Shown: positions 8,343 to 51,717, counted from the stretch's first letter. The stretch: 64,000 bases of DNA from Escherichia coli (GCF_965641715.1 NZ_OZ282453.1); one strand, 5' to 3'. Notes: generated by a model from the sequence alone, not told the origin. Numbers and translations are program-made.

Positions 8343-8388
8343 CGGCAGGAAAACGCGATTTTAGCGGTAATTCGCACGAAATTTGTTT

Positions 8389-8440
<52 letters not shown>

Positions 8441-8495
8441 CACACCAGACAGCAAAAGATTTTAAAACGTTAATTCACACCCAGGAGTGATAAAG

Positions 8496-9209
8496 ATGCA
8501 AAAGCAAGCTGAGTTGTATCGTGGTAAAGCGAAAACCGTATACAGCACGGAAAACCCGGACCTGTTGGTGCTCGAATTCCGCAATGATACGTCAGCAGGG
8601 GATGGCGCGCGCATTGAGCAGTTTGATCGCAAAGGTATGGTGAACAACAAGTTCAACTACTTCATTATGAGCAAACTGGCTGAAGCGGGTATCCCGACTC
8701 AAATGGAGCGTCTGCTCTCCGATACCGAATGTCTGGTGAAAAAGCTGGATATGGTACCGGTTGAGTGTGTCGTGCGTAACCGTGCTGCGGGCTCTCTGGT
8801 GAAACGTCTTGGAATCGAAGAAGGTATTGAGCTGAACCCGCCGCTGTTCGATCTGTTCCTGAAAAACGACGCCATGCACGATCCGATGGTCAACGAATCT
8901 TACTGCGAAACCTTTGGCTGGGTGAGCAAAGAGAACCTGGCGCGTATGAAAGAGCTGACCTACAAAGCGAACGACGTGCTGAAAAAACTGTTCGATGATG
9001 CTGGTCTGATTCTGGTCGACTTCAAGCTGGAATTTGGTCTGTACAAAGGCGAAGTGGTACTGGGTGATGAGTTCTCCCCGGACGGTAGCCGCCTGTGGGA
9101 CAAAGAAACACTGGAGAAAATGGACAAAGACCGTTTCCGCCAGAGCCTCGGTGGCCTGATCGAGGCCTATGAAGCCGTCGCCCGCCGCCTGGGTGTACAG
9201 CTGGACTGA
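8496..9209 (+). CDS. purC: SAICAR synthetase
   Basis: ORF 8487-9209; start at Met4 ([24 protein letters not shown]), 237 aa. Confidence 0.95.
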
Positions 9210-37905: not shown

Positions 37906-39132
37906 ATGGGAATTAACGAAATCATCATGTACATCATGATGTTCTTTATGCTGATAGCTGCCGTAGACAGGATCCTGTCGCAGTTCGGCGGTTCTGCTCG
38001 TTTCCTCGGTAAGTTCGGTAAAAGTATCGAAGGATCAGGCGGTCAGTTCGAAGAAGGCTTTATGGCAATGGGCGCACTGGGCCTGGCGATGGTCGGTATG
38101 ACCGCGCTGGCACCGGTACTGGCTCACGTTCTCGGGCCGGTAATTATTCCGGTTTACGAAATGCTCGGCGCTAACCCATCGATGTTCGCCGGAACACTGC
38201 TGGCGTGCGATATGGGCGGCTTCTTCCTCGCCAAAGAGCTGGCGGGCGGCGACGTAGCCGCGTGGCTATACTCTGGGTTAATTCTCGGGTCGATGATGGG
38301 GCCAACGATTGTGTTTTCCATTCCGGTGGCGCTCGGCATTATCGAACCTTCTGACCGTCGTTATCTGGCGCTCGGCGTGCTGGCGGGCATTGTGACCATT
38401 CCGATTGGTTGTATCGCTGGTGGTCTGGTTGCTATGTACTCCGGTGTTCAGATCAACGGCCAGCCGGTGGAATTCACTTTCGCCCTGATCCTGATGAACA
38501 TGATCCCGGTGATCATTGTTGCGATTCTGGTGGCGCTGGGGCTGAAATTCATCCCAGAAAAAATGATCAACGGCTTCCAGATCTTCGCCAAATTCCTCGT
38601 TGCATTGATCACCCTCGGTCTTGCCGCTGCGGTAGTGAAATTCCTGCTTGGCTGGGAACTGATCCCCGGTCTGGATCCTATCTTTATGGCCCCTGGCGAT
38701 AAACCCGGTGAGGTGATGCGCGCCATTGAAGTTATCGGTTCTATCTCCTGCGTTCTGTTAGGGGCGTATCCGATGGTGCTGCTGCTGACCCGCTGGTTTG
38801 AAAAACCGCTGATGAGCGTCGGTAAAGTGCTGAATATGAACAACATCGCGGCAGCCGGCATGGTGGCAACGCTTGCCAACAACATCCCGATGTTCGGCAT
38901 GATGAAGCAGATGGATACCCGCGGCAAAGTCATCAACTGCGCCTTCGCCGTTTCCGCTGCTTTCGCCCTGGGCGACCACTTAGGCTTCGCCGCTGCCAAC
39001 ATGAATGCCATGATCTTCCCGATGATTGTCGGCAAGTTGATCGGCGGCGTAACGGCGATTGGCGTGGCGATGATGCTGGTGCCAAAAGACGACGCGACCG
39101 CGGCTAAAACCGAAGCGGAGGCACAATCGTGA
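37906..39132 (+). CDS. eutH: Ethanolamine permease/facilitator EutH
   Basis: 408 aa, polytopic membrane protein. Confidence 0.94.
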   Translation: MGINEIIMYIMMFFMLIAAVDRILSQFGGSARFLGKFGKSIEGSGGQFEEGFMAMGALGLAMVGMTALAPVLAHVLGPVIIPVYEMLGANPSMFAGTLLACDMGGFFLAKELAGGDVAAWLYSGLILGSMMGPTIVFSIPVALGIIEPSDRRYLALGVLAGIVTIPIGCIAGGLVAMYSGVQINGQPVEFTFALILMNMIPVIIVAILVALGLKFIPEKMINGFQIFAKFLVALITLGLAAAVVKFLLGWELIPGLDPIFMAPGDKPGEVMRAIEVIGSISCVLLGAYPMVLLLTRWFEKPLMSVGKVLNMNNIAAAGMVATLANNIPMFGMMKQMDTRGKVINCAFAVSAAFALGDHLGFAAANMNAMIFPMIVGKLIGGVTAIGVAMMLVPKDDATAAKTEAEAQS

Positions 39133-40532
39133 ACACTCGCCAGCTACTGAGCGTCGGTATCGATATCGGCACCACCACCACCCAGGTGATTTTCTCCCAC
39201 CTGGAACTGGTTAACCGTGCGGCGGTGTCGCAGGTGCCGCGCTACGAATTCATCAAACGCGAAATTAGCTGGCAAAGCCCGGTGTTCTTTACCCCTGTCG
39301 ATAAACAGGGTGGTTTAAAAGAAGCGGAACTGAAATCGCTGATTTTAGAGCAATATCAGGCTGCGGGCATTGCGCCGGAAAGCGTTGATTCTGGTGCCAT
39401 CATCATCACCGGTGAAAGCGCGAAAACCCGCAATGCTCGCCCGGCGGTGATGGCGCTCTCTCAGTCGCTGGGCGATTTTGTCGTCGCCAGCGCCGGGCCG
39501 CACCTCGAATCCGTGATCGCCGGTCACGGTGCCGGGGCGCAAACCCTTTCTGAACAACGGCTGTGTCGGGTACTGAATATCGACATCGGCGGTGGCACCG
39601 CGAACTACGCCCTGTTCGATGCCGGAAAAATCAGCGGCACTGCCTGCCTCAACGTCGGTGGTCGCCTGCTGGAAACCGACAGCCAGGGGCGCGTGGTTTA
39701 CGCTCATAAACCGGGGCAGATGATTGTGGATGAGTGCTTCGGCGCAGGCACCGATGCCCGTTCGCTGACCGGCGCGCAGCTGGTGCAGGTTACCCGGCGG
39801 ATGGCAGAGCTGATTGTCGAAGTGATTGACGGAACGCTTTCGCCGCTCGCGCAGGCATTAATGCAAACCGGTTTGCTGCCCGCAGGTGTTACGCCCGAAA
39901 TCATTACGCTTTCTGGCGGCGTGGGCGAATGTTATCGCCACCAGCCCGCCGACCCGTTCTGTTTTGCCGATATTGGCCCGCTTCTGGCAACGGCGCTGCA
40001 TGACCATCCGCGCCTGCGTGAGATGAACGTGCAGTTTCCGGCGCAAACCGTGCGCGCCACGGTGATTGGTGCGGGTGCACATACCCTTTCGCTCTCTGGC
40101 AGCACAATCTGGCTGGAGGGCGTACAACTGCCGCTGCGCAATTTGCCGGTGGCGATCCCAATTGATGAAACGGATCTGGTGGGTGCCTGGCAACAGGCGC
40201 TGATTCAGCTGGATCTTGATCCCAAAACTGACGCGTACGTGCTGGCGCTTCCCGCCTCGCTGCCTGTGCGTTACGCCGCGGTACTGACGGTCATCAACGC
40301 GTTGGTCGATTTCGTCGCGCGTTTTCCGAATCCGAATCCCCTGCTGGTGGTGGCCGGGCAGGACTTTGGTAAAGCTCTGGGCATGTTGTTGCGCCCACAG
40401 CTACAACAACTCCCGTTGGCAGTCATTGACGAAGTGATTGTCCGCGCGGGGGACTATATCGACATTGGTACGCCTCTTTTTGGCGGATCGGTTGTGCCGG
40501 TGACGGTGAAATCACTCGCATTTCCTTCCTGA
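39129..40532 (+). CDS. eutA: Ethanolamine ammonia-lyase reactivase EutA
   Basis: 467 aa; the TGA stop (40530-40532) lies inside the att core of the island. Confidence 0.94.
   Translation: MNTRQLLSVGIDIGTTTTQVIFSHLELVNRAAVSQVPRYEFIKREISWQSPVFFTPVDKQGGLKEAELKSLILEQYQAAGIAPESVDSGAIIITGESAKTRNARPAVMALSQSLGDFVVASAGPHLESVIAGHGAGAQTLSEQRLCRVLNIDIGGGTANYALFDAGKISGTACLNVGGRLLETDSQGRVVYAHKPGQMIVDECFGAGTDARSLTGAQLVQVTRRMAELIVEVIDGTLSPLAQALMQTGLLPAGVTPEIITLSGGVGECYRHQPADPFCFADIGPLLATALHDHPRLREMNVQFPAQTVRATVIGAGAHTLSLSGSTIWLEGVQLPLRNLPVAIPIDETDLVGAWQQALIQLDLDPKTDAYVLALPASLPVRYAAVLTVINALVDFVARFPNPNPLLVVAGQDFGKALGMLLRPQLQQLPLAVIDEVIVRAGDYIDIGTPLFGGSVVPVTVKSLAFPS
40511..40532. repeat. attL (bacterial arm + 8-bp core CTTCCTGA)
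   Basis: atcactcgcatttccttcctga. The core at 40525-40532 is repeated at 51725-51732, and atcact is also shared. Confidence 0.7.
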
Positions 40533-40582
40533 ATACTGTAGTTATCAGGCGTGGCGCTGGGTGGCTGGGTGTTAGTGGGATT

Positions 40583-40602
40583 ATATCCGGCTGTGTATCC
40601 GG
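40583..40602. repeat. GTATCCGG-type repeats near attL (candidate integrase arm-type sites)
   Basis: atatccgg at 40583-40590 and gtatccgg at 40595-40602. Confidence 0.4.
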
Positions 40603-40626
40603 TCGGGGTGATTGGTCTGTATAGCA

Positions 40627-40648
40627 GAAAACCCGGCGCGGGGCCGGG
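40627..40648 (-). terminator. Rho-independent terminator after the Rha-like gene
   Basis: Minus strand reads cccggc-cccgc-gccggg followed by TTTTT. The hairpin is identical to the one at 42316-42337. Confidence 0.8.
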
Positions 40649-40655
40649 TGAACTA

Positions 40656-41216
40656 TCACTCAGGGAACAAGTTGATTTGAAGCAAACTGCCAATGTATTT
40701 ACCAGTGCTTTTAATTTTTCGCTTTGATGGCTTACACGAATTCAGGTTGACACCAGCCTGGCTAGATATTGGCTTGTATTGCCGCTCCGCCAGTACGATC
40801 AGGTCTGCCGCGTCTTTTAGCTTTCCATCGTTAGCCAGTTCCAATGCTCGATCCGCCATTTGCCCGCATTGTTGAATCAGCTTAAGTTGCGATACCTCCA
40901 GTCGCAATTGCTGGATTCGTTCTACCACTTTCGCCCTAATGCGCTTAGTTTCACGCATTCCCATTCTTAATGCCTGGTTGCCAGTAAGTGAGTAAACCTC
41001 TTTTTCTTTCCTGAAGTTTGCGGCTTTACCGTCAGCTTGGACGCGCATTTTATGCGCTTCCAAGAATTCGCCCTCCAATTCATCCCTGATCTTCGCGTTG
41101 AATCTGTCGTTCTTGAGTTCATTTAACCCTTCCGCCTTGCGGATCTGGTTGATTAACTCCAACAATTCATCACTGCGGATACGCCACTCGCTATCAACCT
41201 GTACCAAGTCAAACAT
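40656..41216 (-). CDS. Rha-like phage regulatory / antirepressor-like protein (186 aa)
   Basis: ORF track 40656-41309 begins at a TTG. I prefer the ATG at 41216 (MFDLVQVDSEWRIRSDELLELINQIRKAEG), which has a GGGAG RBS 7 nt upstream. The domain pattern resembles the Phage_pRha family; this is a memory-based judgement, not a search result. Confidence 0.6.
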   Translation of the reverse strand: MFDLVQVDSEWRIRSDELLELINQIRKAEGLNELKNDRFNAKIRDELEGEFLEAHKMRVQADGKAANFRKEKEVYSLTGNQALRMGMRETKRIRAKVVERIQQLRLEVSQLKLIQQCGQMADRALELANDGKLKDAADLIVLAERQYKPISSQAGVNLNSCKPSKRKIKSTGKYIGSLLQINLFPE

Positions 41217-41380
41217 GTTGTTGCTCCCGTTTTGCTGCCATAGGGCAACGGCTCGCCAGCCTTTATCACCTCCTTTAGTTGTTGCGATTCTTAACTGAAT
41301 GGTTATCAAAACGCTGCGTTAATATCATTGATATGTATCAAATTTGTTTTGTGACGCGACAATGCCTTGTGAATATCAAT

Positions 41381-41404
41381 AAAAAACCCAGCGCTATGGC
41401 TGGG
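41381..41404 (-). terminator. Terminator after the XRE-HTH gene
   Basis: Minus strand reads cccagc-catagc-gctggg followed by TTTTTT. Confidence 0.8.
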
Positions 41405-41437
41405 CTTCGTTTAATGAGATGGGATTGAAAGCGGGTT

Positions 41438-42220
41438 TTATTTATCTCCCAGATTGTATTCCCAGTTGGGAAGTAAAGTTATCAGCTTGTCACCTTTCTT
41501 GCCTTTGCCGATCTGGTTGCCGTTCTCGTCTTTCTTGTGTGTGATTTCCTGGTCAACCTTAATCAATCCTCTCTCTTTGGCTTGCTCAATCAGTCGGTAG
41601 AATGCGCCGTTACTAATCGGCTTCCGGTTACCGTCGTTATCCATCGCAGTGATTTTCTGTTGCAGTCCGGCGTTATTGCCCAGGTATTCGCCACCTAACG
41701 CCGCCAGTACCTGACACAACATGCCGACACTGTATTTTTTCGGATTTGGGTTAATCCATTCTTTAGCTCCCATCTCTTTTTTGTCGTTGGGCGCTTGTTC
41801 TGCTGCTACTGCGTTCACCTTTTCATCTCCCATCTTGTTACCGCTTGCTGTGCGCTTAATTTCTTCCAGTTCTCTCTCAAGCTCACCTATACGTAATTCA
41901 CGCTCGATAATTACCCCGCGCAGCACATCATCATCACCGTGAGGGCTTGCCTGAATCCAGTTACCATTGGCGAGCGGTAGGAGGGCATAAATTCCGAACA
42001 GGTCACAAAGCGCGGCAAGTGTATTAAAATCAGGTTCCCGGCGTCCCTCCATCCAGTGGCTAACAGCGCCTTTTGTGACTGGTTCGCCTTTCTTGCTTTT
42101 AACACCCATGCGATCCAGTGCGGCGGCTATCTCTTCGCATTTAATGCCACGACCGCCAGCATAGCCCGCCGCTTTCGCGGCCCCTTTGAGGATGTCGTGA
42201 ATTTTCATTTCGTAACTCAT
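41438..42220 (-). CDS. XRE/cI-type HTH protein with coiled-coil linker and C-terminal putative winged-helix domain (260 aa)
   Basis: ORF 41438-42235. Start moved to MSYEMKIHDILKGAAKAAG, where the GGGAGA RBS is 8 nt upstream. The segment GIKCEEIAAALDRMGV...TKGAVSHWMEGRREPDFNTLAALCDLFG matches the HTH_XRE pattern. Confidence 0.7.
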   Translation of the reverse strand: MSYEMKIHDILKGAAKAAGYAGGRGIKCEEIAAALDRMGVKSKKGEPVTKGAVSHWMEGRREPDFNTLAALCDLFGIYALLPLANGNWIQASPHGDDDVLRGVIIERELRIGELERELEEIKRTASGNKMGDEKVNAVAAEQAPNDKKEMGAKEWINPNPKKYSVGMLCQVLAALGGEYLGNNAGLQQKITAMDNDGNRKPISNGAFYRLIEQAKERGLIKVDQEITHKKDENGNQIGKGKKGDKLITLLPNWEYNLGDK

Positions 42221-42230
42221 AATTTTATCT

Positions 42231-42258
42231 CCCATCTCATGAACTATGGTGGGAGATT
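42231..42258. promoter_or_regulatory. 28-bp box copy 1 (CCCATCTCAT-N9-TGGGAGATT), overlapping the RBS of the HTH gene
   Basis: Near-identical box at 42939-42966. ATCTCCCA (42227-42234) and TGGGAGAT (42250-42257) form a perfect 8-bp inverted repeat. Confidence 0.5.
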
Positions 42259-42315
42259 AACACGGCGGGCCTGTGGCGGGTAAGTGTAACGGGAGAGAAT
42301 GTTGATTCAGGTCAC

Positions 42316-42337
42316 AAAAACCCGGCGCGGGGCCGGG
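42316..42337 (-). terminator. Terminator after the 158-aa gene
   Basis: aaaaacccggcgcggggccggg is identical over 21 nt to the terminator at 40628-40648. Confidence 0.8.
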
Positions 42338-42359
42338 CTGTGTTAGTACGTCGTTGCTC

Positions 42360-42836
42360 TTAGTTCATGAGGAGATCTTTAAATTCGACGCCGTATTCAT
42401 GGGCAATGTCGCCTCTATAGTAGATGTTATCTTTCAGGATATATCCGACGTTTCTCAGGACGTGAGAACACTCTCTTACTGCTGCCTCTTTACCCCTTAA
42501 AACATCCTCCCCGCTAACTTCTTCGCCGCTGTACTTCACTGCGATGTTGTCTGCTGCACGCTCTGCTGCTTCCAGGCAATTAATCTTCACTTTTCCCCGA
42601 TTCTCCCAGGCAAAATCGCGGCCATAAATCCCCATTGCATCAACCATCTTTTGCGCAGTAGTGCGCTCATCCACCCATTCAGTGCGTTCGAACTTCTCGC
42701 CAGCAGCTACCCTTGCCGCCAGTTGTTCGTGTTGAGTCTGTACGGCCGCAGCCTCTTCTTCCCATTTGCCTTGCTCGTTGTATACGATGAAGCCAGTGAT
42801 GACTGCAGCGATTAGTAACTTGTCCAGAAAATTCAT
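42360..42836 (-). CDS. Membrane-anchored (N-terminal TM) protein of unknown function, 158 aa
   Basis: Strong RBS AGGAGGA 6 nt before the ATG. MNFLDKLLIAAVITGFIVY signal-anchor, then a soluble domain with two Cys. Confidence 0.7.
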   Translation of the reverse strand: MNFLDKLLIAAVITGFIVYNEQGKWEEEAAAVQTQHEQLAARVAAGEKFERTEWVDERTTAQKMVDAMGIYGRDFAWENRGKVKINCLEAAERAADNIAVKYSGEEVSGEDVLRGKEAAVRECSHVLRNVGYILKDNIYYRGDIAHEYGVEFKDLLMN

Positions 42837-42938
42837 AGCTTCCTCCTATCTGTTCAATTACCCGGCATCTCTTGCCGTTGAACGTATTAAACAAAATGCC
42901 AGTCAGGGATAAAGCGATCTGCGTCATAAAGTCCATCC

Positions 42939-42966
42939 CCCATCTCATTGATATTGATGGGAGATT
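42939..42966. promoter_or_regulatory. 28-bp box copy 2, about 100 nt upstream of the 158-aa gene
   Basis: CCCATCTCAT-tgatattga-TGGGAGATT. On the minus strand it overlaps a candidate promoter, CTGACC-N18-CAATAT. Confidence 0.45.
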
Positions 42967-43041
42967 GTTTAATTGGTCAGAAATTAAGCGTTTATGTGCG
43001 CTGCCGGGTATCCACCTCCTATCTGAAGATGGAAAGATGGG

Positions 43042-43123
43042 TGATATAATGTGATGGCAATTGGTGGATTGCGTGGTTTTTACAATGATAAGGGGCTGGC
43101 GTAATGCTGGCCCCTTTGTTTAT
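43042..43123 (+). ncRNA. Candidate ~65-nt plus-strand sRNA (promoter through terminator)
   Basis: Perfect extended -10 TGaTATAAT at 43042-43050. First hairpin gcaat-N6-attgc at 43057-43072. An 11-bp terminator stem at 43090-43116 has two G-U pairs, so it only folds well on the plus-strand RNA. It is followed by TTTGTTTAT. Confidence 0.4.
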
Positions 43124-43162
43124 CCGGTATCCGGTATCCGGTATAAGCGGGCGTGTATCCGG
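43120..43162. repeat. Internal cluster of TATCCGG/GTATCCGG repeats
   Basis: tTATCCGGTATCCGGTATCCGG (three tandem 7-mers) plus gtatccgg at 43155-43162. The segment cgtgtatccggtagcgggga resembles ctgtgtatccggtcggggtga at the left end. Confidence 0.6.
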
Positions 43163-43356
43163 TAGCGGGGATATGGGCGCGTGTACGTGAAATCTGGCAA
43201 ATTAGCAGGGTAATTGTGAGGGAATTTTTGCGTAGGAGCGTTTGTGGCTGGTAGCTCAAAATTGAGCTTTGCTTTTCATTCAATGACTTAGGTTAATTCT
43301 AGCAAAACGCTAGGATTGAATGTCCGCCAGTCTGCTTCCCCTAGCGTGGGATTTGG

Positions 43357-45723
43357 TCAACGTCTGCGCGGCTGCAAAATTCCTCCGGGTCGTTGTGATT
43401 CACGCTGCATCAGTCGCATCGCTGTGTTTTCTATGGTCTGCTGCAGCGCTTTTGAGTCTTCCTCTGTCCAGCCGTTGTTAGCCTGGATGTTGAACGTATT
43501 GTTCATCGTGATTCCGCCACCGCCTACCAGATCGCGGCCCGGTGTAACTCGTCCACCTTCACCCGGGATCATGTACTGTTTCCCGCCAGTGGATGTAAAT
43601 AGCTCCGGTACTCCGTGCTCCCCGACCCTATAAAGATTGCCACCGTTAACAGCCCCGCCGTTGTAACGAGCGCCAGCCAGTCCAAGCGTTTTGGCGGCAG
43701 CTACGCCAGTAGTAAGCCCGGTAAGTCCAGTGGCCCCAGCGCCGCCCATCGTGGCTACGTTAGCCAGGTATGCAGGAGTGGCCCACGCCGATCCTAATGC
43801 TGTAGCCTCTGCTAGTGCTTTAGCTGTTGCGGCTGCGTTTGCGGCTTCACCAATTAGCTGCTGTTTAACCCACTCAGCACCCATCTGGACAATGCCACCG
43901 ACCACAGAAGACAGGATCGTACTGCCAACGTTGGCAAGTGACTCTTGCAGCGATTGAGTACCGTTTATCAGTCCGGTAAATGCGCTGCCAGCGCCAGACG
44001 ATAACCCATCGACCATATTCCCGATGAGGCCATTTATATCGCTTTGTTTCTTCCACTGCTGCCACTGGAGATCCAGAACCCTTTGTTCATGTGCGATCTC
44101 TTCCTGGCGCAACTGCTCTTCGGTAGCCCCAAGATCTAGAAGCATTTGCTTGCGAACAGCCCATTCATTTTGGATCTTCTGTATTGGGTCAATCTGAGCT
44201 TTCTGCTTATCCTGCTCACTGACAAGACTGTCCCATTTCGCTTTCTGCTTGCGGATGGCTTCAGCTTCATCAATTGCTGCGAGTGTACTTGCTCGCTGTT
44301 TCGCGCTGATCAACCGTTTCTGCTCAGCCGCTTCCAGGTCTTCTACTGCTTTTTTCCGTTTATTGAGCGCCGCTAGTTCGGGATCGTATTTTTCCACCAA
44401 TGAAAGGCCGCTTGCTTCCTTACGTTCGCGTTCTCTTTGTGCCTGTTTGGCTGCCTGCTTAGCGGCGTTTTCTGCTTGTTTGGCTGCTCTTTCTTTCGCC
44501 CTGGTGTTCTCTTCTTCCTTGCGCTTATTCTCTTCTAACTCCTTGTTTTGTTCGCGTAATTTAACGATTTCCTCATGATGCGCCTTTGTCAGCTGGCCTT
44601 CTTTCAGTGCCCGATCTATATCAGCGTTTGCGTTGCCTTTTAGCTGTTCCTGTTTAACTTGCAGATGTTTAATCATCATTTCGCCAGTGGCAATCGCTGC
44701 CGCAGACGCTCCAGCATTCAGAGCTTCATTTAACGCTCTCTGACGTTCTTCTGCTGTTAATGCCTCGTTGCTGTATCGAAGTAGCGCATCAACGTATTTC
44801 TCCAGTTCTGCGCGGCCTGCCGCAGTTGCTGGTTCCATTGCTTTTAGGATGCTCAGAAGGCTTTGCGCTTCATAGGAAGACGGGTTTTTGCGGAACTGCG
44901 CCATAGCGTTATAAAGCGCCATAGCTTCACCCTCTGTGATTCTGTACTTAGCTCCCAGCCCTTCAATGACCGCTGATAACTGTTTGCCAAGCGCTGCACC
45001 GAATGCGCCTTCCTTGCTTAATTTGTTGAGCACTTCACTCAGTGAATTTCCTGACACGCCCAGCGCGTCGAGTTCTCTTGCTACCGTTCCCAGGTCGCCG
45101 CCTTTCATCCATCCTGCATTAGAAAATTCAGTGATAGCCCGGCCCGCTTCCCGCGTTTCTTCCTGGAGTGTTTTTAGCGCCCGCACGGCCTGCTCTTTCA
45201 TTACGGCGGCGGCAATGGCGTTGTTCTGTGTGGCTTCGTAATATGAATCACTGAAAGCGTTAACGCCCTGGGTGGATTTGCCGATCACGGCGTCGATTGA
45301 TGCTAATGCCTCCTTCATCCTTTCAGCGCTATCCGTTGCGTCGTCCATGCTGTCCGTTAGGCTGTTGGCAATCGCCCCGCCAATAGCCATCACCGCCCCC
45401 ATGACCGCACCGCCAGTACCGAAGGCAGCGGCAAGTTGTGCACCCTGCACAGCGAACGCCTGGAGCGCATTACCGCCCATCTGCAATTGAGTGGCAAGGT
45501 CTGCGATCTGGTATGATGCGTTACGGATTGCCGGGGAAAGGTTGGTTTTGACTGCGGCAGACGTTTTGGTCATCTGCGTGTTCAGTTTTTTGACGCCACT
45601 GTCAGCGCGTTTTGCGCCGCGTTCTATACTGTCAAAAGCCTGGTCCGCTTCTTGTTGTGCTGCCAGGAGTTTACCAGTACGGGCGTCGACCTCATAGTAT
45701 ATGGTCCCAAGATTCCCACTCAT
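43357..45723 (-). CDS. Phage tail tape-measure protein, lambda gpH-like, 788 aa, apparently full length
   Basis: The N-terminal YQIADLATQLQMGG segment, the long E/K/A/Q coiled-coil core, and the Gly-rich hydrophobic C-terminal region ending GG..YRVGEHGVPELF ... NNTFNIQANNG match my memory of gpH domain order. Confidence 0.8.
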   Translation of the reverse strand: MSGNLGTIYYEVDARTGKLLAAQQEADQAFDSIERGAKRADSGVKKLNTQMTKTSAAVKTNLSPAIRNASYQIADLATQLQMGGNALQAFAVQGAQLAAAFGTGGAVMGAVMAIGGAIANSLTDSMDDATDSAERMKEALASIDAVIGKSTQGVNAFSDSYYEATQNNAIAAAVMKEQAVRALKTLQEETREAGRAITEFSNAGWMKGGDLGTVARELDALGVSGNSLSEVLNKLSKEGAFGAALGKQLSAVIEGLGAKYRITEGEAMALYNAMAQFRKNPSSYEAQSLLSILKAMEPATAAGRAELEKYVDALLRYSNEALTAEERQRALNEALNAGASAAAIATGEMMIKHLQVKQEQLKGNANADIDRALKEGQLTKAHHEEIVKLREQNKELEENKRKEEENTRAKERAAKQAENAAKQAAKQAQRERERKEASGLSLVEKYDPELAALNKRKKAVEDLEAAEQKRLISAKQRASTLAAIDEAEAIRKQKAKWDSLVSEQDKQKAQIDPIQKIQNEWAVRKQMLLDLGATEEQLRQEEIAHEQRVLDLQWQQWKKQSDINGLIGNMVDGLSSGAGSAFTGLINGTQSLQESLANVGSTILSSVVGGIVQMGAEWVKQQLIGEAANAAATAKALAEATALGSAWATPAYLANVATMGGAGATGLTGLTTGVAAAKTLGLAGARYNGGAVNGGNLYRVGEHGVPELFTSTGGKQYMIPGEGGRVTPGRDLVGGGGITMNNTFNIQANNGWTEEDSKALQQTIENTAMRLMQRESQRPGGILQPRRR

Positions 45724-46012
45724 AATATCTTTATCCGCGTTGTGCGGACACCTCCGATTATTCTTTACTCTAATAATTTCACAATGAAACAGTTTATTGC
45801 CGCTTCAGTGGCTTCGTGTTCCGGTTTGCTTCGATCAATCACAAAAAATACAGCTTAATAGAATCAATGGCTTATAAAGTTGTATTAGCTATGTTTCTTC
45901 GTCCGTGCCACTGAAAACCCAGTTTTTCCAATGGAATCAATACTGATATGTATCCATACTGTTTTTCACATAATGTACGTTATGCGCACTACGGGAAACG
46001 TACTGAATTTAT

Positions 46013-46243
46013 TTACTGGTCGCCGTTCAGTTCATGCAGAGTCTGTTCTGGCAATGAATCCAGCCAGTTTTCTGCATCCTCCCTGTAACACTCCAGGATG
46101 CAACGGTTTGTGAAGTTGATGAAAGCGGTCAGTGATTCTGCTTCGTCGTTCCTGTGCGTTCTCCTGGCGTGCTTGCGTAGTCGTTTCGCGTCTGCCAGTT
46201 GGTCATTGAGTATCTTCAGTCTGTCGGCAATATCATCGTTCAT
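46013..46243 (-). CDS. Hypothetical 76-aa helical protein
   Basis: GGGAGAG RBS 5 nt upstream of the ATG; protein-like charged helical composition; no family recognised. Confidence 0.55.
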   Translation of the reverse strand: MNDDIADRLKILNDQLADAKRLRKHARRTHRNDEAESLTAFINFTNRCILECYREDAENWLDSLPEQTLHELNGDQ

Positions 46244-46378
46244 GTCGTCTCTCCCTCGCGCGCGCGTCGTACTTGTCCGAAAATTACCCCCATAAAAGCG
46301 CCCCTCATATAGTGCAAAATCCCGGCTGACGCGGATCTCAGTGGGTTTTAGCAGTGAAAACTGACATCAAAAACGGCT

Positions 46379-46426
46379 CGCTAAGGTCCGCTAAGTATCC
46401 GCTATCGTTCGCTAACCCCCCGCTAA
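46379..46426. repeat. Five phased CGCTAA (minus strand TTAGCG) direct repeats
   Basis: Copies start at 46379, 46389, 46400 (CGCTAT), 46410 and 46421. The spacings of 10, 11, 10 and 11 bp equal one helical turn. Confidence 0.85.
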
Positions 46427-46430
46427 CCTA

Positions 46431-46796
46431 TTAGATATCGCATCCAACGCTATTGAGCTGGCTATGTATATCGGCGCGAATTAACTTCAGGCGTTTACAA
46501 AATTCGCGTTCTTCCGAATTAAGCTCGCGGCCACCTTGTTTCGAGGCAATGAGCTTGTTGATGGTGGAAAGCGAATATTCACTCCATATACGAAGCATTT
46601 GTCGCTTCATTGGTTGCTCGCTCAATGGTGAGTTTTTCAGGTCTGACACGCGCTCTGCGACGGTTCTTGCGATGCCTTGTACCACTCGTAGTGCCAACAT
46701 GATGATTTTCTCCGGACTTGTGCTAATATAGTTCCCGAACATTGTTTCGAGACTGCTTATCCTGTTTGTCTTGTCCGATTTGTTCATTGGTCGCAT
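46431..46796 (-). CDS. Hypothetical 121-aa protein
   Basis: ORF with protein-like composition (…IIMLALRVVQGIARTVAERVSDL…) but no obvious SD. A hairpin lies just upstream, and the stop abuts the CGCTAA array. Confidence 0.5.
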   Translation of the reverse strand: MRPMNKSDKTNRISSLETMFGNYISTSPEKIIMLALRVVQGIARTVAERVSDLKNSPLSEQPMKRQMLRIWSEYSLSTINKLIASKQGGRELNSEEREFCKRLKLIRADIHSQLNSVGCDI

Positions 46797-46838
46797 TGTT
46801 AAGTCAGCCGGGGTAATTCCCGGCTTTCTTTTATCCGA

Positions 46839-47381
46839 TCAGTACCGAATCCCTATCGCATTGAATACGCGTTTCCGTTGCTCAGCTTCAGGATCGGCGG
46901 CCATTTCTGGTTCTGGCTCCGGCATAGACGGGGCGGCATCAAAATGCTCAATTTCACGACCGAAATACGAGTTCAGGTCAATACCTGCCGAACTATCCAC
47001 TCCATCAAAATAGCGACGCTGTTCCTCGGTGAGACAGCTACCCAGACGTTCCTCAACCTGCGCCATAAACTCAGCATCCGGTGAGAAGTACTCATCCGGA
47101 GTCGGAGCACCGCTCTGTTTGTGCATCTCCATTTTCTCTGCGTTCGTTTTCAGCCCGGCAATGCGTTTCTCCAGTCCGGCGGCTTTAATAGCGTCAGCAA
47201 CGATTTGTGGGATCTGCGGTTTAATTATTTCGATAACTTCATTGCTGATTAATTTAAACTGGGCCATACGGATCGCTTTAATCTGCTTATTTAACAGTGC
47301 GCGTTCCCCTTCGTTGGCGGTTTTATCACGCTGTGCTACCAGTTCATCGCCTTTGTTTGTCAGTACATCAAATGCGTCCAT
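46839..47381 (-). CDS. Hypothetical 180-aa protein with acidic, Pro-rich C-terminal part
   Basis: Strong RBS GGAGGAGG; starts 17 nt after the stop of the 108-aa ORF. Confidence 0.65.
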   Translation of the reverse strand: MDAFDVLTNKGDELVAQRDKTANEGERALLNKQIKAIRMAQFKLISNEVIEIIKPQIPQIVADAIKAAGLEKRIAGLKTNAEKMEMHKQSGAPTPDEYFSPDAEFMAQVEERLGSCLTEEQRRYFDGVDSSAGIDLNSYFGREIEHFDAAPSMPEPEPEMAADPEAEQRKRVFNAIGIRY

Positions 47382-47398
47382 TGTCTTTCCTCCTCCGA

Positions 47399-47725
47399 TT
47401 ATTTAAAAGTGCTTATTGACACGCCGAAACGACGACTTAATTCAAAAAGGAGTCGCGCCTTTGCAGTGCCTTCCATGTCTTCCGGCATTTCAGACTGAAG
47501 TTTATCAGCTACTTCATCAACAAGTGGCCGAACCGTTTCCACGAACTTGTCCGCAATATAATCAGCAGAACGCATCACTTTTTCCTGGAATTCCTCACGG
47601 CGTACCTGGGCGGCTGATTTAGGGGCTGTCGTGCGCTGAAAATAACTGTCTAATGAATGCATGGCATCTGCTCCTTTTACTTTGATTGCTGTTATTTCTT
47701 TAATTGTGTTTGCTTTGATTTTCAT
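47399..47725 (-). CDS. Hypothetical 108-aa protein
   Basis: AAGGA RBS; first gene downstream of alpA in the same orientation. Confidence 0.55.
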   Translation of the reverse strand: MKIKANTIKEITAIKVKGADAMHSLDSYFQRTTAPKSAAQVRREEFQEKVMRSADYIADKFVETVRPLVDEVADKLQSEMPEDMEGTAKARLLFELSRRFGVSISTFK

Positions 47726-47801
47726 GCTGCCTATTCCTTCAGAAATTGCGGTAGTTTGCTTTTTAAATCAATAAGTTATTTGATAATCTCAGTAGCTGTT
47801 T

Positions 47802-47993
47802 TCATTGGTGGCGAGCGCCTTTGTTTTTATAGAATTCCAAAATCTCAGATCGGATAAACTTAATTCTTGAGCCAATCGGACTGACCGGGACGGGCCAGCC
47901 TTTAATCTTGTTCATCCACCGGAATATTGTCCGACGGGTAACGCCGAATAAAGCTGCTACCTCGTTAACCGTCATTAATTCGCTATCATTCAT
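47802..47993 (-). CDS. AlpA-family (Phage_AlpA/HTH_17) transcriptional regulator / excisionase-like protein, 63 aa
   Basis: LMTVNEVAALFGVTRRTIFRWMNKIKGWPVPVSPIGSRIKFIRSEILEF is the typical AlpA/MerR-like HTH. GAGGTGAG RBS. Confidence 0.85.
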   Translation of the reverse strand: MNDSELMTVNEVAALFGVTRRTIFRWMNKIKGWPVPVSPIGSRIKFIRSEILEFYKNKGARHQ

Positions 47994-47996
47994 GTT

Positions 47997-48046
47997 CTCA
48001 CCTCAAAAAGTAGCGGTGAGGAAAATATGGAGAAAACCCTCACCGC
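47997..48046 (-). promoter_or_regulatory. Terminator-like leader hairpin immediately upstream of alpA; one arm duplicates the SD
   Basis: mRNA sense: GCGGTGAGG-N16-CCTCACCGC (9-bp perfect stem), then UACUUUUU, then GAGGUGAG (SD), then AAC-AUG. The 3' arm can also pair with the SD (CUCACC/GGUGAG). Confidence 0.55.
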
Positions 48047-48090
48047 GCCCTGAATGAAATTAAAGACCAACATTACTGTTGATACTTATT

Positions 48091-48096
48091 ATTATA
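48091..48096 (-). promoter_or_regulatory. Candidate -10 (perfect TATAAT) for the alpA operon
   Basis: Minus strand reads ggaaTATAATaa, about 95 nt upstream of the alpA ATG. The -35 is weak (ATGTGA). Confidence 0.3.
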
Positions 48097-48185
48097 TTCC
48101 TCCTGTCCCTGTTTCACATCTTTTACCATATAGTGAAAGGGGATATTCTGTAATGTTTACAAAACTTTTAATTAGCAAAAAATAA

Positions 48186-48306
48186 TTGCGCATCTCACGT
48201 AATGCAGGGATAATATTACTCAAGGGCTGGTTGCCCTTACTCAAAATGTGATCTATAACTACAACGATCTATTTCACTTCCCCGCTTTCTCCGGCGGGAT
48301 TTTTTT
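48186..48306 (+). ncRNA. Candidate ~85-nt plus-strand sRNA (promoter through terminator)
   Basis: TTGCGC-N17-GATAAT at 48186-48214. 5' hairpin aagggc-tggtt-gccctt at 48222-48238. 3' hairpin cccgc-N8-gcggg followed by a run of seven T at 48300-48306. Confidence 0.3.
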
Positions 48307-49118
48307 GCCTGCAATCTGGCACCATTGCGCACATTAAAATTAGATGCCATTTAAAAGCGATATAACGCGTTCTGCCGGGCTTAATTTTGGCTATCCACTT
48401 GGAAGGGTAAGCCTGTTTTGATTCGTCTGGCGTGGAATGGTGCGGCGGTAATATCAGATCTCAGCGTTCTGCGTGGTGGGATGAAATAGCCTGGCAGGAT
48501 TTGCGTGTGGTTTGCTCTCCCAAAAAATGGGGTAATGGCGCTGGCTGGATGGCAGGACTCCGCGCTGATTACTGGATGGCTGAAAATTTAATGAAATCGC
48601 ATCAATTTTAATGCGTCTAAATCGCTCTGTGGCGACGTGAAGTTTTCAGGTAAGCAAGTGTAGCTGTGTGGTGTGTTCATCGCGTTACTGGCACCATTCC
48701 GTTCGAATTTGGCGCTATCAGGATGGTTTGCGGTGGTCGGCGGCGGGGATAAACTTGCTTGAGTGGTCACCTCAGCCTGCTGTGCGTCGTGTGATGGTAC
48801 TGTCTGCACCTGGCTATACGCTGCTTTGCTGCTGTTTCCTGTCTGGTCTGTATACGCGATAAAACCCATCGGCTTTACAGTGAGTGAGTTTTTTGCGCTT
48901 TGCTTTCCATTCGGTTTGCTTACTGCTGCTGTGTGTCTGTGCGGTAGCTCAGAAAGCTGTCGATGATAACCATCACTGCCAGACCGTCTTTTGAGCTGGC
49001 GATTGCTCGAAGTCTTCCGAAGGTCCGCTGGGCTTGTTGCTTGTTTGTGTTCTTTTAAAATGCGCGCCTCTTACTTTCTCTTAAAAAGAAAAAAGGAATA
49101 TACAGATCTCATACTATG

Positions 49119-49273
49119 TGTGTCCCAAATGTCACACGTCATGGCCTGACCTGTATCCCAAATGTCACACGTCACCCTCTGACCTGTATCCCAAATGTCA
49201 CACGTACCTGTGTCCCAAATGTCACACGTCTATTGTTAATTAATTGTTGACCTGTGTCTCAAATGTCACACGT
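49119..49273. repeat. Five direct 21-bp iterons TGTRTCCCAAATGTCACACGT (putative ori)
   Basis: Copies at 49119-49139, 49152-49172, 49185-49205, 49209-49229 and 49253-49273 (one mismatch). Start spacings are 33, 33, 24 and 44 bp. Four copies are preceded by (G)ACCTG. An AT-rich tract with AGATCT lies at 49081-49110. Confidence 0.85.
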
Positions 49274-49290
49274 CTGTTGATGGTTTAAGT

Positions 49291-49320
49291 AATAAAAAGG
49301 GCCACCATTTTAGGTGACCC
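49291..49320 (-). terminator. Terminator after the Rep-like gene
   Basis: Minus strand reads gggtcacc-taaaat-ggtggccc followed by TTTTTATT. Confidence 0.7.
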
Positions 49321-49338
49321 ATTGATGCGTTTTAGTCG

Positions 49339-50103
49339 TTATCTTGCGTTCTCGACCTGAAAAAGCATTCTGTATTTTCTTGCGTGCTGACCAATAACAT
49401 ATTCCCCGTATGGCTCAATGAGTCCTAACTCAACCAGGATTTTCATCTGGCGAATTACGGTGCGGCGATTCATGCCCCATTCATCAGCTATTTTTGCCTG
49501 GCAAACTTCAGATACATAAGATCCATCATTCTGCTTTCTTGCTGCTGATGCAATGCTGGATAATACGCTCCAGGCTGTAGCTTTAGCTTTATTCTCGCAA
49601 CCACTTCTGACAAATGCCTTACGTGCCGCACCCAAACAGACATAACTGCAATAAATTCCTTTTTCTTCCGTTTGGTATTGTGTCTCTTTATCCTGCATGG
49701 CTTCCGGTTCTTCCGGCGCTTCCTGCTGTGGTGCTGTCTGCGAAGTTTTAGCGGCCATACTGCGTAGCTCGTTCACGATATCAGTAGCTGATTTCTTCTC
49801 GCTTTTAGTTTCCTGCGTGACTGATAAATACTCACCTTGTAACGCCAGGAAGTCAGCGCGGGCGTTTGCCTGGCTTTGTTCTGGTGATTCAGGTTCTGCA
49901 TCGGCAGGTGATGAAATCGGTGATACACGCGCCCAGCCTGTTTTGGCGTTGCATTCCCAGCGATAACCATTAAAGCGGATATCATTCAGGCCATCATCAA
50001 TGGCGCTCCGTACTTCTTCCGGGATCGCGTCGATTTTCTGAAGGCTGTGTTTACCGAGTGATTCGCCTTGCCGTGGGGCGTAGGCGGTTGGTAAAATATT
50101 CAT
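49339..50103 (-). CDS. Putative iteron-binding replication initiator / winged-helix DNA-binding protein, 254 aa
   Basis: AAGGAGAA RBS. The C-terminal segment IADEWGMNRRTVIRQMKILVELGLIEP is a wHTH-like motif. A long acidic Q/E/P-rich linker is present. The gene is directly followed by a terminator and the iteron array. No primase or helicase motifs. Confidence 0.55.
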   Translation of the reverse strand: MNILPTAYAPRQGESLGKHSLQKIDAIPEEVRSAIDDGLNDIRFNGYRWECNAKTGWARVSPISSPADAEPESPEQSQANARADFLALQGEYLSVTQETKSEKKSATDIVNELRSMAAKTSQTAPQQEAPEEPEAMQDKETQYQTEEKGIYCSYVCLGAARKAFVRSGCENKAKATAWSVLSSIASAARKQNDGSYVSEVCQAKIADEWGMNRRTVIRQMKILVELGLIEPYGEYVIGQHARKYRMLFQVENAR

Positions 50104-50173
50104 GTGGGATTTCTCCTTTTTACTTGTTTCCCATATCGCCCGGATTGGTTAGCGGCCTTCCGGGCTTTTTGTT
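50068..50173 (+). ncRNA. Candidate countertranscript (antisense) RNA to the rep leader, ~70 nt, with its promoter
   Basis: TTGCCG-N18-TGgTAAAAT (extended -10) at 50068-50097 places the TSS near 50104, abutting the rep ATG. The transcript is complementary to the rep SD (ttctcctt at 50111-50118). It ends at hairpin gcccgga-N14-tccgggc followed by TTTTTGTT (50138-50173). Confidence 0.5.
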
Positions 50174-50317
50174 GCGTTGATCCTATTTTCGATCCCCGGA
50201 TTTTTTATTACAAACTTGGCTTAATCATTGATTTTATTGGTATAGCTGTATAAAAGGATAACAGGATAAAAGGGTGATAGATTGTGTAACCTGTTAACCT
50301 TTTATACCAGTAAGGCG

Positions 50318-50341
50318 AAAGAAAAGCCGGACGAATCCGGC
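50318..50341 (-). terminator. Terminator after the integrase gene
   Basis: Minus strand reads gccgga-ttcg-tccggc followed by TTTTCTTTC. Confidence 0.75.
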
Positions 50342-50349
50342 CTTATAGT

Positions 50350-51555
50350 TCACGGCTCCAGCGGATTACCGCCACCAGCCAATATCTGGTCGATGGCGTC
50401 GCTGTAGTCCTGCATCATGGCCCGCCGTTGCTTCAGATAGGCCGCCTGGTTATAAACGCCGCGCACACCTTTCGGAACGTGGGCCAGTTGGATTTCGATC
50501 CAGTCTGGTGAGTATCTGCCGTACTCGTTAAGTGCGGTTGAAAAGGTGGTTCGCCAGCCGTGACCAGTGGCTATCGACTTGTATCCGATACGCTCCAGGG
50601 CTTTAAGGATGGCACTGGCTGAAAGTGGCTTATCCATGAATCGACCAGGGAACACAAAAGCACTGTATCCGCTGCGGGTAAACTGGTCCTGTAATAGCTC
50701 GACCGCCTGCCGGGATAGCGGGACCACATGCGGGCGGCGGGCCTTCATGACTTCAGCGGGTAGGGTGATGGTTGCCGATTCCAGATCTACCCACTCCCAG
50801 CGCATTAAACGCAGTTCTGCGGTCCTTAGGGCGCTTAATATAAGCAAACGTATTGCCGTCTGAATCTGAACGCTCCCGGCTCTCTCAAGGGCTTTGTAGA
50901 AGGCCGGGATTTCGTTAATTTGTATCCATGCGTTATGGCCTGGGCGTCGGGCTTTCAATGCCGTGTCCAGATCTGCAACCGGATTTCGGTTAACCAGTTC
51001 AGTGATAACGGCAAATTTGAAGATTTCCCCTATACGCTGCCGTAATTTTCGGGCCTGTTCCGGCGCGGTGCGCTCTTTCTTCTGAAGCAATGCCAGCACG
51101 TCACGGGCCGTTATATCGACAATCGACCGCTTGCCAAGTACCGGATAAACATCTTTCTCCAGTGCCGATCTAACTTGTTTCGTGTAAGACTCAGACCAAC
51201 CGCTCACTCTGGTAGCAAACCAGTCTTCCGCTACCGTCTTAAAACTTGCCGCCATGTTGAGCGCATCAATGGCTTTCTCCTTGCGCGCTTCTTCCATTGG
51301 GTCAATTCCCTGGGCGATGAGTAAACGGCTCTCTGTGGCGCGTTTACGTGCTTCCTTCAAGGTAATCAGCGGATATACCCCAATAGCCTGTAACCGCTCT
51401 TTCTTGTCTATCCAGTACCGGAATCGCCAGTATTTGCTGCCATTGGGATGTACCAGCAAGAACAGGCCAGGTGTCTGTGAATCGGTGAGTTTGTAGGGCT
51501 TGTCCTTCGGCTGGGCGGCCTCTATGCCCTTTGCTGTCAGTGGTGTCTTGCTCAA
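50350..51555 (-). CDS. P4-family tyrosine integrase (N-terminal arm-binding DUF4102-type domain), 401 aa; occupies the position of K-12 intZ
   Basis: TTG start with a GAGGT RBS. KPYKLTDSQTPGLFLLVHPNGSKYWRFRY is the typical P4-integrase N-terminus. C-terminal catalytic residues are present: ...HGWRTTFST...LAHV...GVYNQAAY. Confidence 0.9.
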   Translation of the reverse strand: MSKTPLTAKGIEAAQPKDKPYKLTDSQTPGLFLLVHPNGSKYWRFRYWIDKKERLQAIGVYPLITLKEARKRATESRLLIAQGIDPMEEARKEKAIDALNMAASFKTVAEDWFATRVSGWSESYTKQVRSALEKDVYPVLGKRSIVDITARDVLALLQKKERTAPEQARKLRQRIGEIFKFAVITELVNRNPVADLDTALKARRPGHNAWIQINEIPAFYKALERAGSVQIQTAIRLLILSALRTAELRLMRWEWVDLESATITLPAEVMKARRPHVVPLSRQAVELLQDQFTRSGYSAFVFPGRFMDKPLSASAILKALERIGYKSIATGHGWRTTFSTALNEYGRYSPDWIEIQLAHVPKGVRGVYNQAAYLKQRRAMMQDYSDAIDQILAGGGNPLEP

Positions 51556-51557
51556 AA

Positions 51558-51604
51558 CCGGATACCTCGATCTAACGACTCGATAACCCCGCTCATGTAT
51601 CCGT
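51558..51604. repeat. GTATCCGG-type motifs near attR (candidate arm-type sites)
   Basis: ccggatac (inverted) at 51558-51565, overlapping the int RBS, and gtatccgt at 51597-51604. Confidence 0.35.
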
Positions 51605-51717
51605 CGCGTTCGGTTGCGTTCGGCAGGATAAGTAACGGGCGTATTAAGTGGAACACCTTACAGGACAAGGGATAACGATGAAATAGAATTGTTCGAATGC
51701 TGTGAAAAATGTTACTC

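Follow-up and report, generated by a model that had tools for sequence, protein, structure and literature searches.

The PLEs of Vibrio cholerae, elements that resemble phage-inducible chromosomal islands (PICIs), encode a tape measure protein (TMP) and a chaperone, and some of them a baseplate hub as well (Mathur, Boyd et al., Nature 2026, PMC12987554; preprint January 2025). In PLE virions this TMP takes the place of the TMP of phage ICP1, giving chimeric tails, and PLE11 has an additional 80-aa inhibitor, Rta, of the phage TMP-dependent assembly (PMC12987554). Putative tmp genes are also present in PLE-like elements and in some cf-PICIs, which are PICIs that form capsids (PMC12987554, Extended Data Fig. 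10), and the EPIP satellites of Mycolicibacterium carry a TMP (PMC12822802). Moreover, tail assembly is known as a defence target through Tab (PMC10884400), Tai (PMC11364771) and Rta (PMC12987554). Here we describe an intact TMP gene in a 64,000-nt stretch of Escherichia coli DNA (GCF_965641715.1, NZ_OZ282453.1; the window), where it lies in an island between eutA and eutB, at the site of the K-12 cryptic prophage CPZ-55. From its sequence and by analogy with PLE, we consider it probable, at roughly 55%, that this TMP is the functional ruler of a PICI-like satellite of the CPZ-55 family and serves for building chimeric tails from helper parts. No description of a TMP-bearing CPZ-55 family was found in the literature on CPZ-55, on eutB-site PICIs and on E. 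coli satellite tape measures.

As in PLE, a satellite-type element encodes its own TMP, which is full-length, near the helper length and diverged, comes in alternative types and is not accompanied by tube, sheath or fibre genes. Nevertheless the two systems differ in several respects. PLE has a chaperone and often a baseplate hub, neither of which was found in the E. coli family, and its helper is a lytic myovirus whereas the E. coli candidates are temperate siphophages. The PLE TMP is ~20% identical to that of its helper, whereas the terminal domains of the E. coli protein reach 55-76%. In E. coli, moreover, the TMP and a conserved leader make up an optional cassette, and the TMP is swapped between near-identical islands. 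The cf-PICIs, PLE-like elements and EPIPs are alike in having predicted TMP genes in satellites beyond Vibrio. However, cf-PICIs have capsid, portal and connector genes, of which there are none in the E. coli family, and the EPIPs, free satellite particles of an actinobacterial prophage, have a gene content unrelated to it. The Gram-negative PICIs resemble the E. coli elements in their size of ~11 kb, the integrase, the AlpA-type regulator, the iteron or primase replication, the small terminase found in many relatives, and the lack of capsid, tail-shaft and lysis genes. To our knowledge classical PICIs do not carry a TMP, and unlike them some members of the E. coli family are integrase-less circular episomes. 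Virion incorporation has been demonstrated for PLE; in the E. coli family it is a prediction, as is induction by a helper. Tab, Tai and Rta also concern the TMP-dependent step of tail assembly and are prophage- or satellite-borne, but they are small unrelated proteins aimed at the phage TMP whereas the island protein is a full TMP.

The TMP gene and the elements around it are the following.

40533..51701, unstranded: whole CPZ-55-family island, 11,169 bp (eutA/eutB flanks; low-GC block; K-12 CPZ-55 site)
43357..45723, minus strand: TMP gene, 788 aa (open reading frame; family matches; dN/dS)
45732..45755, minus strand: GGAGG and predicted 7-bp hairpin, 8 nt ahead of the ATG (sequence; prediction in three variants)
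45724..45990, minus strand: conserved non-coding leader, accompanying the TMP gene
43150..43240, unstranded: short conserved post-TMP element, right edge of the cassette slot, retained in TMP-less relatives

The initial annotation of this locus, made from the sequence, had described an intact 788-codon TMP open reading frame (ORF), and this holds, with the strand corrected to minus. The ORF is initiated by ATG, and the probability that 788 codons stay stop-free by chance is ~4e-17, that is (61/64)^788. PHROG 1538 ('tail length tape measure protein') aligned to residues 1-774 with E=8e-112 and PDB 9occ_M, the solved virion TMP 'tail tape measure protein gp18', to residues 72-746 with E=1e-41, which by sequence places the protein in the TMP family over most of its length. 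All the motifs that had been named were found in the translation, namely IADLATQLQMGG, a Lys/Glu/Ala-rich coiled coil, a Gly/Ala-rich hydrophobic stretch, NNTFNIQANNG and GGIL. The description as lambda-gpH-like is right for the general TMP layout and the DxATQL motif close to the N-terminus but not beyond them. The BLASTP alignment with lambda gpH is confined to the ATQL motif (38 residues, E=0.03) and Pfam TMP_2 (PF06791, the lambda gpH family) scored 25.7 bits, under the gathering cut-off of 30.2; a precomputed PF06791 label stands on database entries near-identical to the window TMP. Its true relatives are in the mEp021 group of phages.

A canonical GGAGG is located at 45755-45751, 5' of the predicted hairpin (45750-45732), which is followed by an 8-nt spacer and the ATG. 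This layout is kept in variants, and the hairpin was predicted in three of them, in L017 with another stem sequence (related loci are numbered with the prefix L), at z-scores of only -1 to -2. The TMP ribosome site is therefore more than a weak GGATAAAG, and its earlier description as a weak Shine-Dalgarno site was imprecise. As had also been noted, tail partners are missing from this small island: none of the other ten island ORFs matched chaperone, tube, terminator or tip families in Pfam, PHROGs and NCBIfam, and instead of chaperone genes on one side and tip genes on the other, eutA and eutB flank the island.

The ~290 bp of non-coding DNA and the 76-aa ORF (p76) reported upstream of the gene are indeed present, as a 289-nt gap (45724-46012) separating the TMP gene from p76. 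What had been overlooked is that this gap is a conserved part of a cassette, that the locus is that of CPZ-55 and that islands which are otherwise identical exchange their TMP alleles. The gap contains a leader of ~265 nt that is conserved more strongly than the coding region (78-94% nt identity across the elements bearing it). Leader and TMP gene form a 2.7-kb cassette which is gained or missing as one unit: TMP-less relatives have no leader either, and their homology with L006 ends ~50 nt past the preceding gene and restarts ~34 nt past the TMP stop. The TMP of an island in ychJ (L028) stands without a leader. The post-TMP element matches L006 6566-6630, the O157:H7 island, the plasmids L008 and L009, and K-12 CPZ-55 (92%).

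Of 5426 complete E. coli genomes 61 have the leader, each in a single copy that lies in the chromosome and under no annotated feature. An invariant 23-mer of it retrieved 15 metagenome contigs; its exact sequence was absent from 185,579 species (one representative genome each) and from IMG/VR. Since blastn with 11-nt words of 45724-50349 gave no match in 50,697 phage records, a copied phage cos or regulatory site was rejected for the leader, and a known RNA was rejected as well (nothing in Rfam matched at E up to 1). RNAalifold on 20 leaders gave hardly any compensatory changes, which leaves a large structured RNA without support. The only promoter candidate that a scan found in the leader was a weak sigma-70-like site (45784-45757), and the minus strand had no terminator; the counts were not above those of shuffles. 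As the most economical guess we infer that the leader may be a helper-responsive regulatory site.

Foreign genes are inserted between p76 and the leader in two loci, an AIPR abortive-infection gene with a 232-aa ORF in L002 (7538-10045; strain 2018-18.25PC) and an IS1 fragment with an acyltransferase in L034 (1740-3356), and the TMP gene is still intact in both. The genomes H81 and H83-H85 (O27:H7, O157:H7) have a second match to the C-terminal 310 nt of the TMP gene and a single leader copy; this second place may be a further island, or it may be the TMP of a prophage that shares the C-terminal allele.

Intact TMPs of 726-791 aa were found at leader-bearing loci in all complete downstream ORFs (20/20), the two incomplete ones being contig ends. 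At the eut site the same slot holds proteins of 726 aa (ATCC 8739-type), 733 aa (USMARC-49610), 732 aa (O157:H7 PV15-279) and 791 aa (E47). More than 100 near-full-length variants are present in the protein database, and nearly all those at 69-100% identity measure 784-791 aa. The ratio of nonsynonymous to synonymous substitution rates (dN/dS, Nei-Gojobori) was 0.10-0.18, at dS of at least 1, when the window TMP was compared with the alleles of 788 or 791 aa in L004, L006 and L007, and when five TMP segments were taken it was 0.04-0.27 in each, the coiled-coil middle included. Within the window's own backbone variant, where dS is unsaturated (0.05-0.6), it was 0.07-0.17, one near-identical pair having too few substitutions to be informative. 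Saturated dS together with a ratio of ~0.1 among island TMP lineages points to selection on the protein during island residence, and these values indicate that the entire TMP is under purifying selection while resident in islands. That the gene is kept by selection, as had been suggested from the uninterrupted ORF, is thus borne out.

The window and L001 are 99.4% identical over 45731-51493, from the leader through the integrase, and their DNA is unrelated starting 8 nt ahead of the TMP start codon. With L002 the window is 99% identical from the last 106 TMP codons through the cargo, and the TMP body differs. L004 and L025 share ~690 identical codons, after which dS is 1.5. Across loci the alleles reassort four N-terminal types, three length classes and two C-terminal types. 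Such breakpoints suggest that the leader and the terminal coding segments serve as arms for the exchange of TMP bodies, and the comparisons indicate that TMP alleles are exchanged by recombination among otherwise near-identical islands. This pattern fits what is typical of an arms-race locus.

The phages closest to the island TMP at both termini are those of the mEp021 group (mEpimmI), whose TMP is a proven virion protein (PMC11893012). Identity of the island protein to mEp021-group phages is 45-55% over the N-terminal 122 aa and 59-66% over the C-terminal 103 aa, whereas the next phages reach ~40%; when the island alleles are compared with mEp013 and the related prophage L011, their terminal domains show 55-76% identity. 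Island and phage proteins also have a hydrophobic block and a RYNGGAVNGGNLYRVGE motif that hardly differ. Both occur in the same two length classes, of 726-733 and 787-791 aa in islands and of 735 aa (mEp013) and ~776-781 aa (others) in phages. However, the phage gene belongs to a full tail module (tube, DUF6246, TMP and then M-, L-, K-, I- and J-like genes), the central regions are unrelated or weakly related, and the island leader is not found in the phages. In mEp013-type phages opposite-strand moron blocks flank the TMP gene.

Two relatives, L007 (3644-4087) and L032 (6744-7187), have a gene similar to HK97 gp10, a tail-completion protein, between leader and TMP. It shows 45-48% full-length identity to the phage gene mEp013_81 and to the L011 counterpart of that gene, which is located just upstream of the tail terminator. 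In phage 80alpha the tail-completion protein touches the TMP N-termini (PMC11661146), and L007 and L032 are the only loci with a divergent TMP N-terminus (MSEQVGSLQIDIDLKT...). As these two are closely related, this counts as one evolutionary event. The TMP and the tail-completion protein are the products of the only two virion-protein genes of the family and both are nearest to the mEp021 group, which indicates the same phage group. In addition, the structural cluster of mEpimmI prophages contains genes for exclusion lipoproteins; Lpp010, that of mEp010, excludes mEp010, mEp044 and mEp554 but not mEp013 (PMC11893012). This specificity may be tied to the other TMP length class of mEp013.

Integrase-less contigs of ~11 kb carry TMPs 81-85% identical to that of the window. 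L006 (ENA ERZ19652126, 11,006 bp) is a metagenome contig at coverage 82 with a 119-nt terminal overlap equal to the assembler k-mer and MEGAHIT flag 3, which we take to mark a stand-alone loop. L007 (Logan SRR13871237, 11,218 bp) has a 30-nt terminal overlap, and the gene orders of the NCBI isolate contigs L030 and L032 are circularly permuted. These four are integrase-less circular elements by assembly. L013 and L021, considered as excised circles of an integrase-bearing island, were rejected as such because they include the eutA and eutB ends and are therefore integrated copies. Many TMP-bearing contigs in the protein database measure 11.0-11.7 kb. Five copies of 10.9-11.2 kb would make 54-56 kb, near the mEp021-group genomes of 53-54.7 kb, which is perhaps a coincidence.

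The circles encode an AlpA-like helix-turn-helix (HTH) protein, an HNH endonuclease, homologues of p180 and p121 of the window island, an Sf6-type small terminase, a 195-aa protein and the leader with the TMP, together with further small ORFs and a Rep or a DUF5906 primase (DUF5906 in L007). Sf6-type small terminase and HNH genes are found in L003, L006, L007, L028, L030 and L032, and the O157:H7 island has the HNH and terminase module as in the circles. A match outside the eut site (H97) proved to be a further island of this kind, at ychJ, and no prophage. The ychJ island L028 (RM11911, NZ_CP044313.1 ~303,700-314,500) measures ~10.5 kb, its tyrosine integrase is 31% identical to IntZ, and its terminase (112 aa), 161-aa ORF and TMP (732 aa) are translationally coupled. 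Two complete E. coli plasmids, pRHB34-C15_2 (L008, CP057168.1, 9.0 kb) and pRHB29-C22_2 (L009, CP057337.1, 9.65 kb), have the backbone of HTH, HNH, terminase and 195-aa genes, with a serine recombinase right after the empty TMP slot. The family thus includes integrated islands, at two sites in the chromosome, as well as circular episomes of ~11 kb that lack an integrase.

K-12 CPZ-55 itself (intZ, yffL-yffS; L029, MG1655 NC_000913.3 2558691-2565480) is alike in its eutA/eutB site, its IntZ (92%), the homology of YffM with p121 and the post-TMP element that it keeps. It differs in having neither leader nor TMP and in keeping YffO and YffP, both missing from the window variant. YffO (locus positions 8112-8528) is homologous to the Sf6-type small terminase of the circles (38% identity, E=7e-23), YffP (8525-9118) is a homologue of the 195-aa protein, and YffM and YffQ also match backbone genes. 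These homologies make CPZ-55 look like a TMP-less member of the satellite family and not like prophage debris.

The other features of the window island are listed below in order from its eutB end.

50350..51555, minus strand: IntZ tyrosine integrase (Arm-DNA-bind_3, Phage_int_M and Phage_integrase above the Pfam cut-off; 92% identity to K-12 IntZ)
49339..50103, minus strand: Rep-like HTH protein, 254 aa (Pfam HTH_36, E=3.5e-5, sub-cut-off; weak PHROG replication-initiation matches)
49119..49285, unstranded: five iterons (TGTGTCCCAAATGTCACACGTC...), direct-repeat family D1, ~22 nt, 24-44 nt spacing
48240..48507, unstranded: non-coding stretch common to the integrase-less circles (74-90% to L006 10800-10970 and to L007 11136-11217 and 2-222)
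47802..47993, minus strand: AlpA/excisionase-type HTH gene, 63 aa (TIGR01764, E=5e-5, sub-cut-off; PADLOC mad1 HTH, E=4e-10)
47399..47725, minus strand: p108, 108-aa ORF in the slot of the HNH endonuclease of variant-A elements (synteny); no family match
46839..47381, minus strand: p180, core gene, 180 aa, equivalent to the adjacent q80 and q142 of circular elements
46431..46796, minus strand: p121, core gene, 121 aa, homologue of YffM and of q100
46013..46243, minus strand: p76, 76-aa ORF particular to this backbone variant; no family match
40656..42836, minus strand: variable cargo downstream of the TMP gene, with 158-aa, 265-aa HTH and 217-aa anti-repressor-like ORFs

The island directly adjoins eutA (39129-40532) and eutB (from 51702), no tRNA gene lies at it and Rfam gave no match. 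The insertion between eutA and eutB and the IntZ-type integrase make it a member of the CPZ-55 family, and related islands are present in 488 of 5426 complete E. coli genomes. All its genes (intZ, Rep-like, AlpA-type, p108, p180, p121, p76, TMP and three cargo ORFs) are on the minus strand. The iterons are directly downstream of the Rep-like gene and are likely the replication origin of the island, of plasmid type within a chromosomal island. The AlpA-type gene shares 54-58% identity with the gene that comes first in the circular elements, and its counterpart in L033 has a precomputed Pfam HTH_17 label. The stretch at 48240-48507, upstream of the AlpA-like gene and also found in L013 and L016, lies upstream of the first gene in the circles and may hold regulatory or packaging signals common to islands and circles. 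By BLASTP against L006 and L007, p180 is 41% identical to q80 and 32-36% to q142. The identity of p121 is 42% to q100 of L006, 45% to K-12 YffM and 80% to the ychJ-site island, and p76 is 84-99% identical in L001, L002, L012, L014, L016, L019, L020 and L024. The small core proteins occur in TMP-less relatives too and so cannot be TMP-specific partners.

The cargo is 99% identical to that of L002, and the O157:H7 island has a 600-nt spacer in its place. GTATCCGG-rich repeats are present 3' of the TMP gene (43117-43182) and again at the eutA end of the island (40582-40612), and an exact 21-nt repeat, AAAACCCGGCGCGGGGCCGGG, is found on both sides of cargo genes (40628-40648 and 42317-42337). L020 has a truncated second integrase past the island end; it was considered as an attP junction and rejected, being a tandem remnant instead. 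Together the repeats and this second integrase suggest that the eutA-proximal end has grown by tandem accretion or by the insertion of cargo. In USMARC-49610 (L001 12844-13623) the island integrase and eutB are both truncated at the junction and annotated as pseudogenes; here the island is locked at its site, and the eut operon has suffered damage.

A size within ~10-15 kb, an integrase, an AlpA-type regulator and a replication module are all present, the AlpA-like and Rep-like calls being sub-threshold, and no capsid, tail-shaft or lysis genes were found with Pfam, PHROGs and NCBIfam. Such small size and modules, with the small terminase of the relatives and without capsid, tail-shaft and lysis genes, amount to a PICI-like satellite anatomy. 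For induction by a helper phage and transfer in its particles, the support from the circular multicopy relatives is indirect.

On the chimeric-tail reading, growth of a helper phage would lead to expression of the island operon from alpA to the TMP gene, and the island TMP would join tail assembly replacing the helper TMP or beside it. Its conserved C-terminal domain would dock on the helper tip complex and its N-terminus would meet the tail-completion protein, either that of the helper or the satellite's own. Because the island TMP has the length of the helper's, the result would be tails of normal length around a satellite-specified core. Such tails could resist inhibitors or superinfection-exclusion proteins acting on the helper TMP and could be fitted to several helpers, and the island TMP might also compete with the helper's own assembly. 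The frequent swapping of TMP alleles is consistent with such an arms race. Among the roles that the initial annotation had listed, one in helper tails is the best supported, by the operon with the terminase, the tail-completion neighbour and the PLE precedent. The re-measuring of the tail is unlikely since island and phage TMPs match in their length classes, and a decoy or immunity trigger found no support.

Several points weigh against this reading. No chaperone is encoded, unlike in PLE: p76, p121, p180 and p108, and q195 and the 161-aa ORF of the relatives, have no chaperone family match in a sequence-based comparison, and homology to the phage DUF6246 gene was not found. The backbone variant of the window (p108, p180, p121, p76) has no recognisable terminase or HNH, which makes the satellite inference weaker for this island; no small terminase, HNH or redirecting protein was recognised in it, and a cos or pac site is possible. 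The cassette is dispensable, as K-12 CPZ-55 and the plasmids pRHB34-C15_2 and pRHB29-C22_2 (9-10 kb) share the backbone without it. Among the 120 best protein matches seven are shorter (470-768 aa), which may reflect gene truncation or contig ends. Identity to the TMPs of the candidate helpers is only moderate, and at the nucleotide level it is ~73-76% to mEp013 and L011 over the homologous C-terminal part, for which reason a recent exchange of DNA with either of them was rejected. IMG/VR gave nothing relevant, its sole TMP match being distant (40% over 110 residues). Of the 5426 genomes, 35 have mEpimmI head genes and 61 have the leader, with an overlap of 0 among the 40 leader-positive genomes listed; as only ~0.4 is expected by chance, this absence carries little weight. 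Finally, island mobilisation and the entry of the TMP into virions are read from gene content.

The same cassette could instead be defence cargo, its TMP acting in infecting siphophages as a mismatched or dominant-negative ruler, so that phage yield would fall and the clone would be protected, while the island itself would have no need of the tails. We regard this as doubtful. It agrees with the accessory nature of the cassette, with its place at the variable, cargo-rich end where the AIPR gene adjoins it in L002, with the lack of a terminase in the window variant and with the arms-race pattern of the alleles; satellites are known to carry defence genes and tail assembly is a known target (Tab, Tai, Rta). 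However, a poison does not need purifying selection over its full length (dN/dS of 0.04-0.27 in all segments), nor length classes matching those of phages, nor operon linkage to a small terminase or tail-completion gene. PADLOC moreover gave no defence match for the TMP and its neighbours, its sole match being the HTH gene. Interference may coexist with the chimeric-tail role, since a competing TMP could do both.

A selfish or neutral passenger, recombining in and out of islands and phages as an allele reservoir with no function for island or host, is unlikely. The mosaic structure, in which breakpoints fall at the conserved leader and at the C-terminal arm, would suit it, as would the mEp013-type phage TMP, itself isolated between opposite-strand moron blocks, but there is no recent phage DNA exchange (~73-76% nt in the C-terminal part), the leader is absent from the 50,697 phage records, and the islands have their own TMP lineages with saturated dS and dN/dS of ~0.1. 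That the TMP is the last gene of a deleted tail cluster, as the K-12 label 'cryptic prophage CPZ-55' and the absence of neighbouring tail genes might suggest, is very improbable, given that the orphan TMP recurs in at least three backbones (eut, ychJ and integrase-less circles) with no trace of other tail genes, that 20/20 complete copies are intact at dN/dS of ~0.1, and that a private conserved leader found in no phage record accompanies it. The recent deletion remnant offered earlier is refuted by this survey, in which the relatives were looked at for truncated copies and for copies beside a normal tail cluster; most are not truncated and none lies beside such a cluster.

Taking the chimeric-tail reading further, we tentatively propose that leader and TMP are a hot-swappable adaptor of an unrecognised E. 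coli satellite family that includes CPZ-55. The conserved ends would plug into the helper tip complex and the tail-completion protein, and the exchangeable body and alternative ends would allow particles carrying the satellite to escape TMP-directed blocks, such as the exclusion lipoproteins of resident mEp021-group prophages or Tab/Tai/Rta-like inhibitors, in the recipient or the producer. Beyond its part as a ruler, the TMP would then give the satellite control over where DNA is delivered. This extension is possible and is offered as a suggestion.

The first demonstration of satellite-encoded TMPs, in 2025-26, concerned one Vibrio system, and the feature is now seen in E. coli too. Apart from this host, the novelty lies in the element family, in a cassette that can be swapped and in the lack of a chaperone. 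The family concerned is that of a 'cryptic prophage' of K-12, whose yffL-yffS genes are uncharacterized, and cultured candidate helpers exist in the mEp021 group. Natural controls are available in near-isogenic islands with different TMP alleles, in relatives without the cassette, and in relatives with their own tail-completion protein and a matching change of the TMP N-terminus. This makes tractable how a foreign TMP is chosen in assembly, what its two ends bind, whether it alters delivery or exclusion resistance, and what the leader senses. CPZ-55 would accordingly be reclassified from prophage debris to a satellite lineage.

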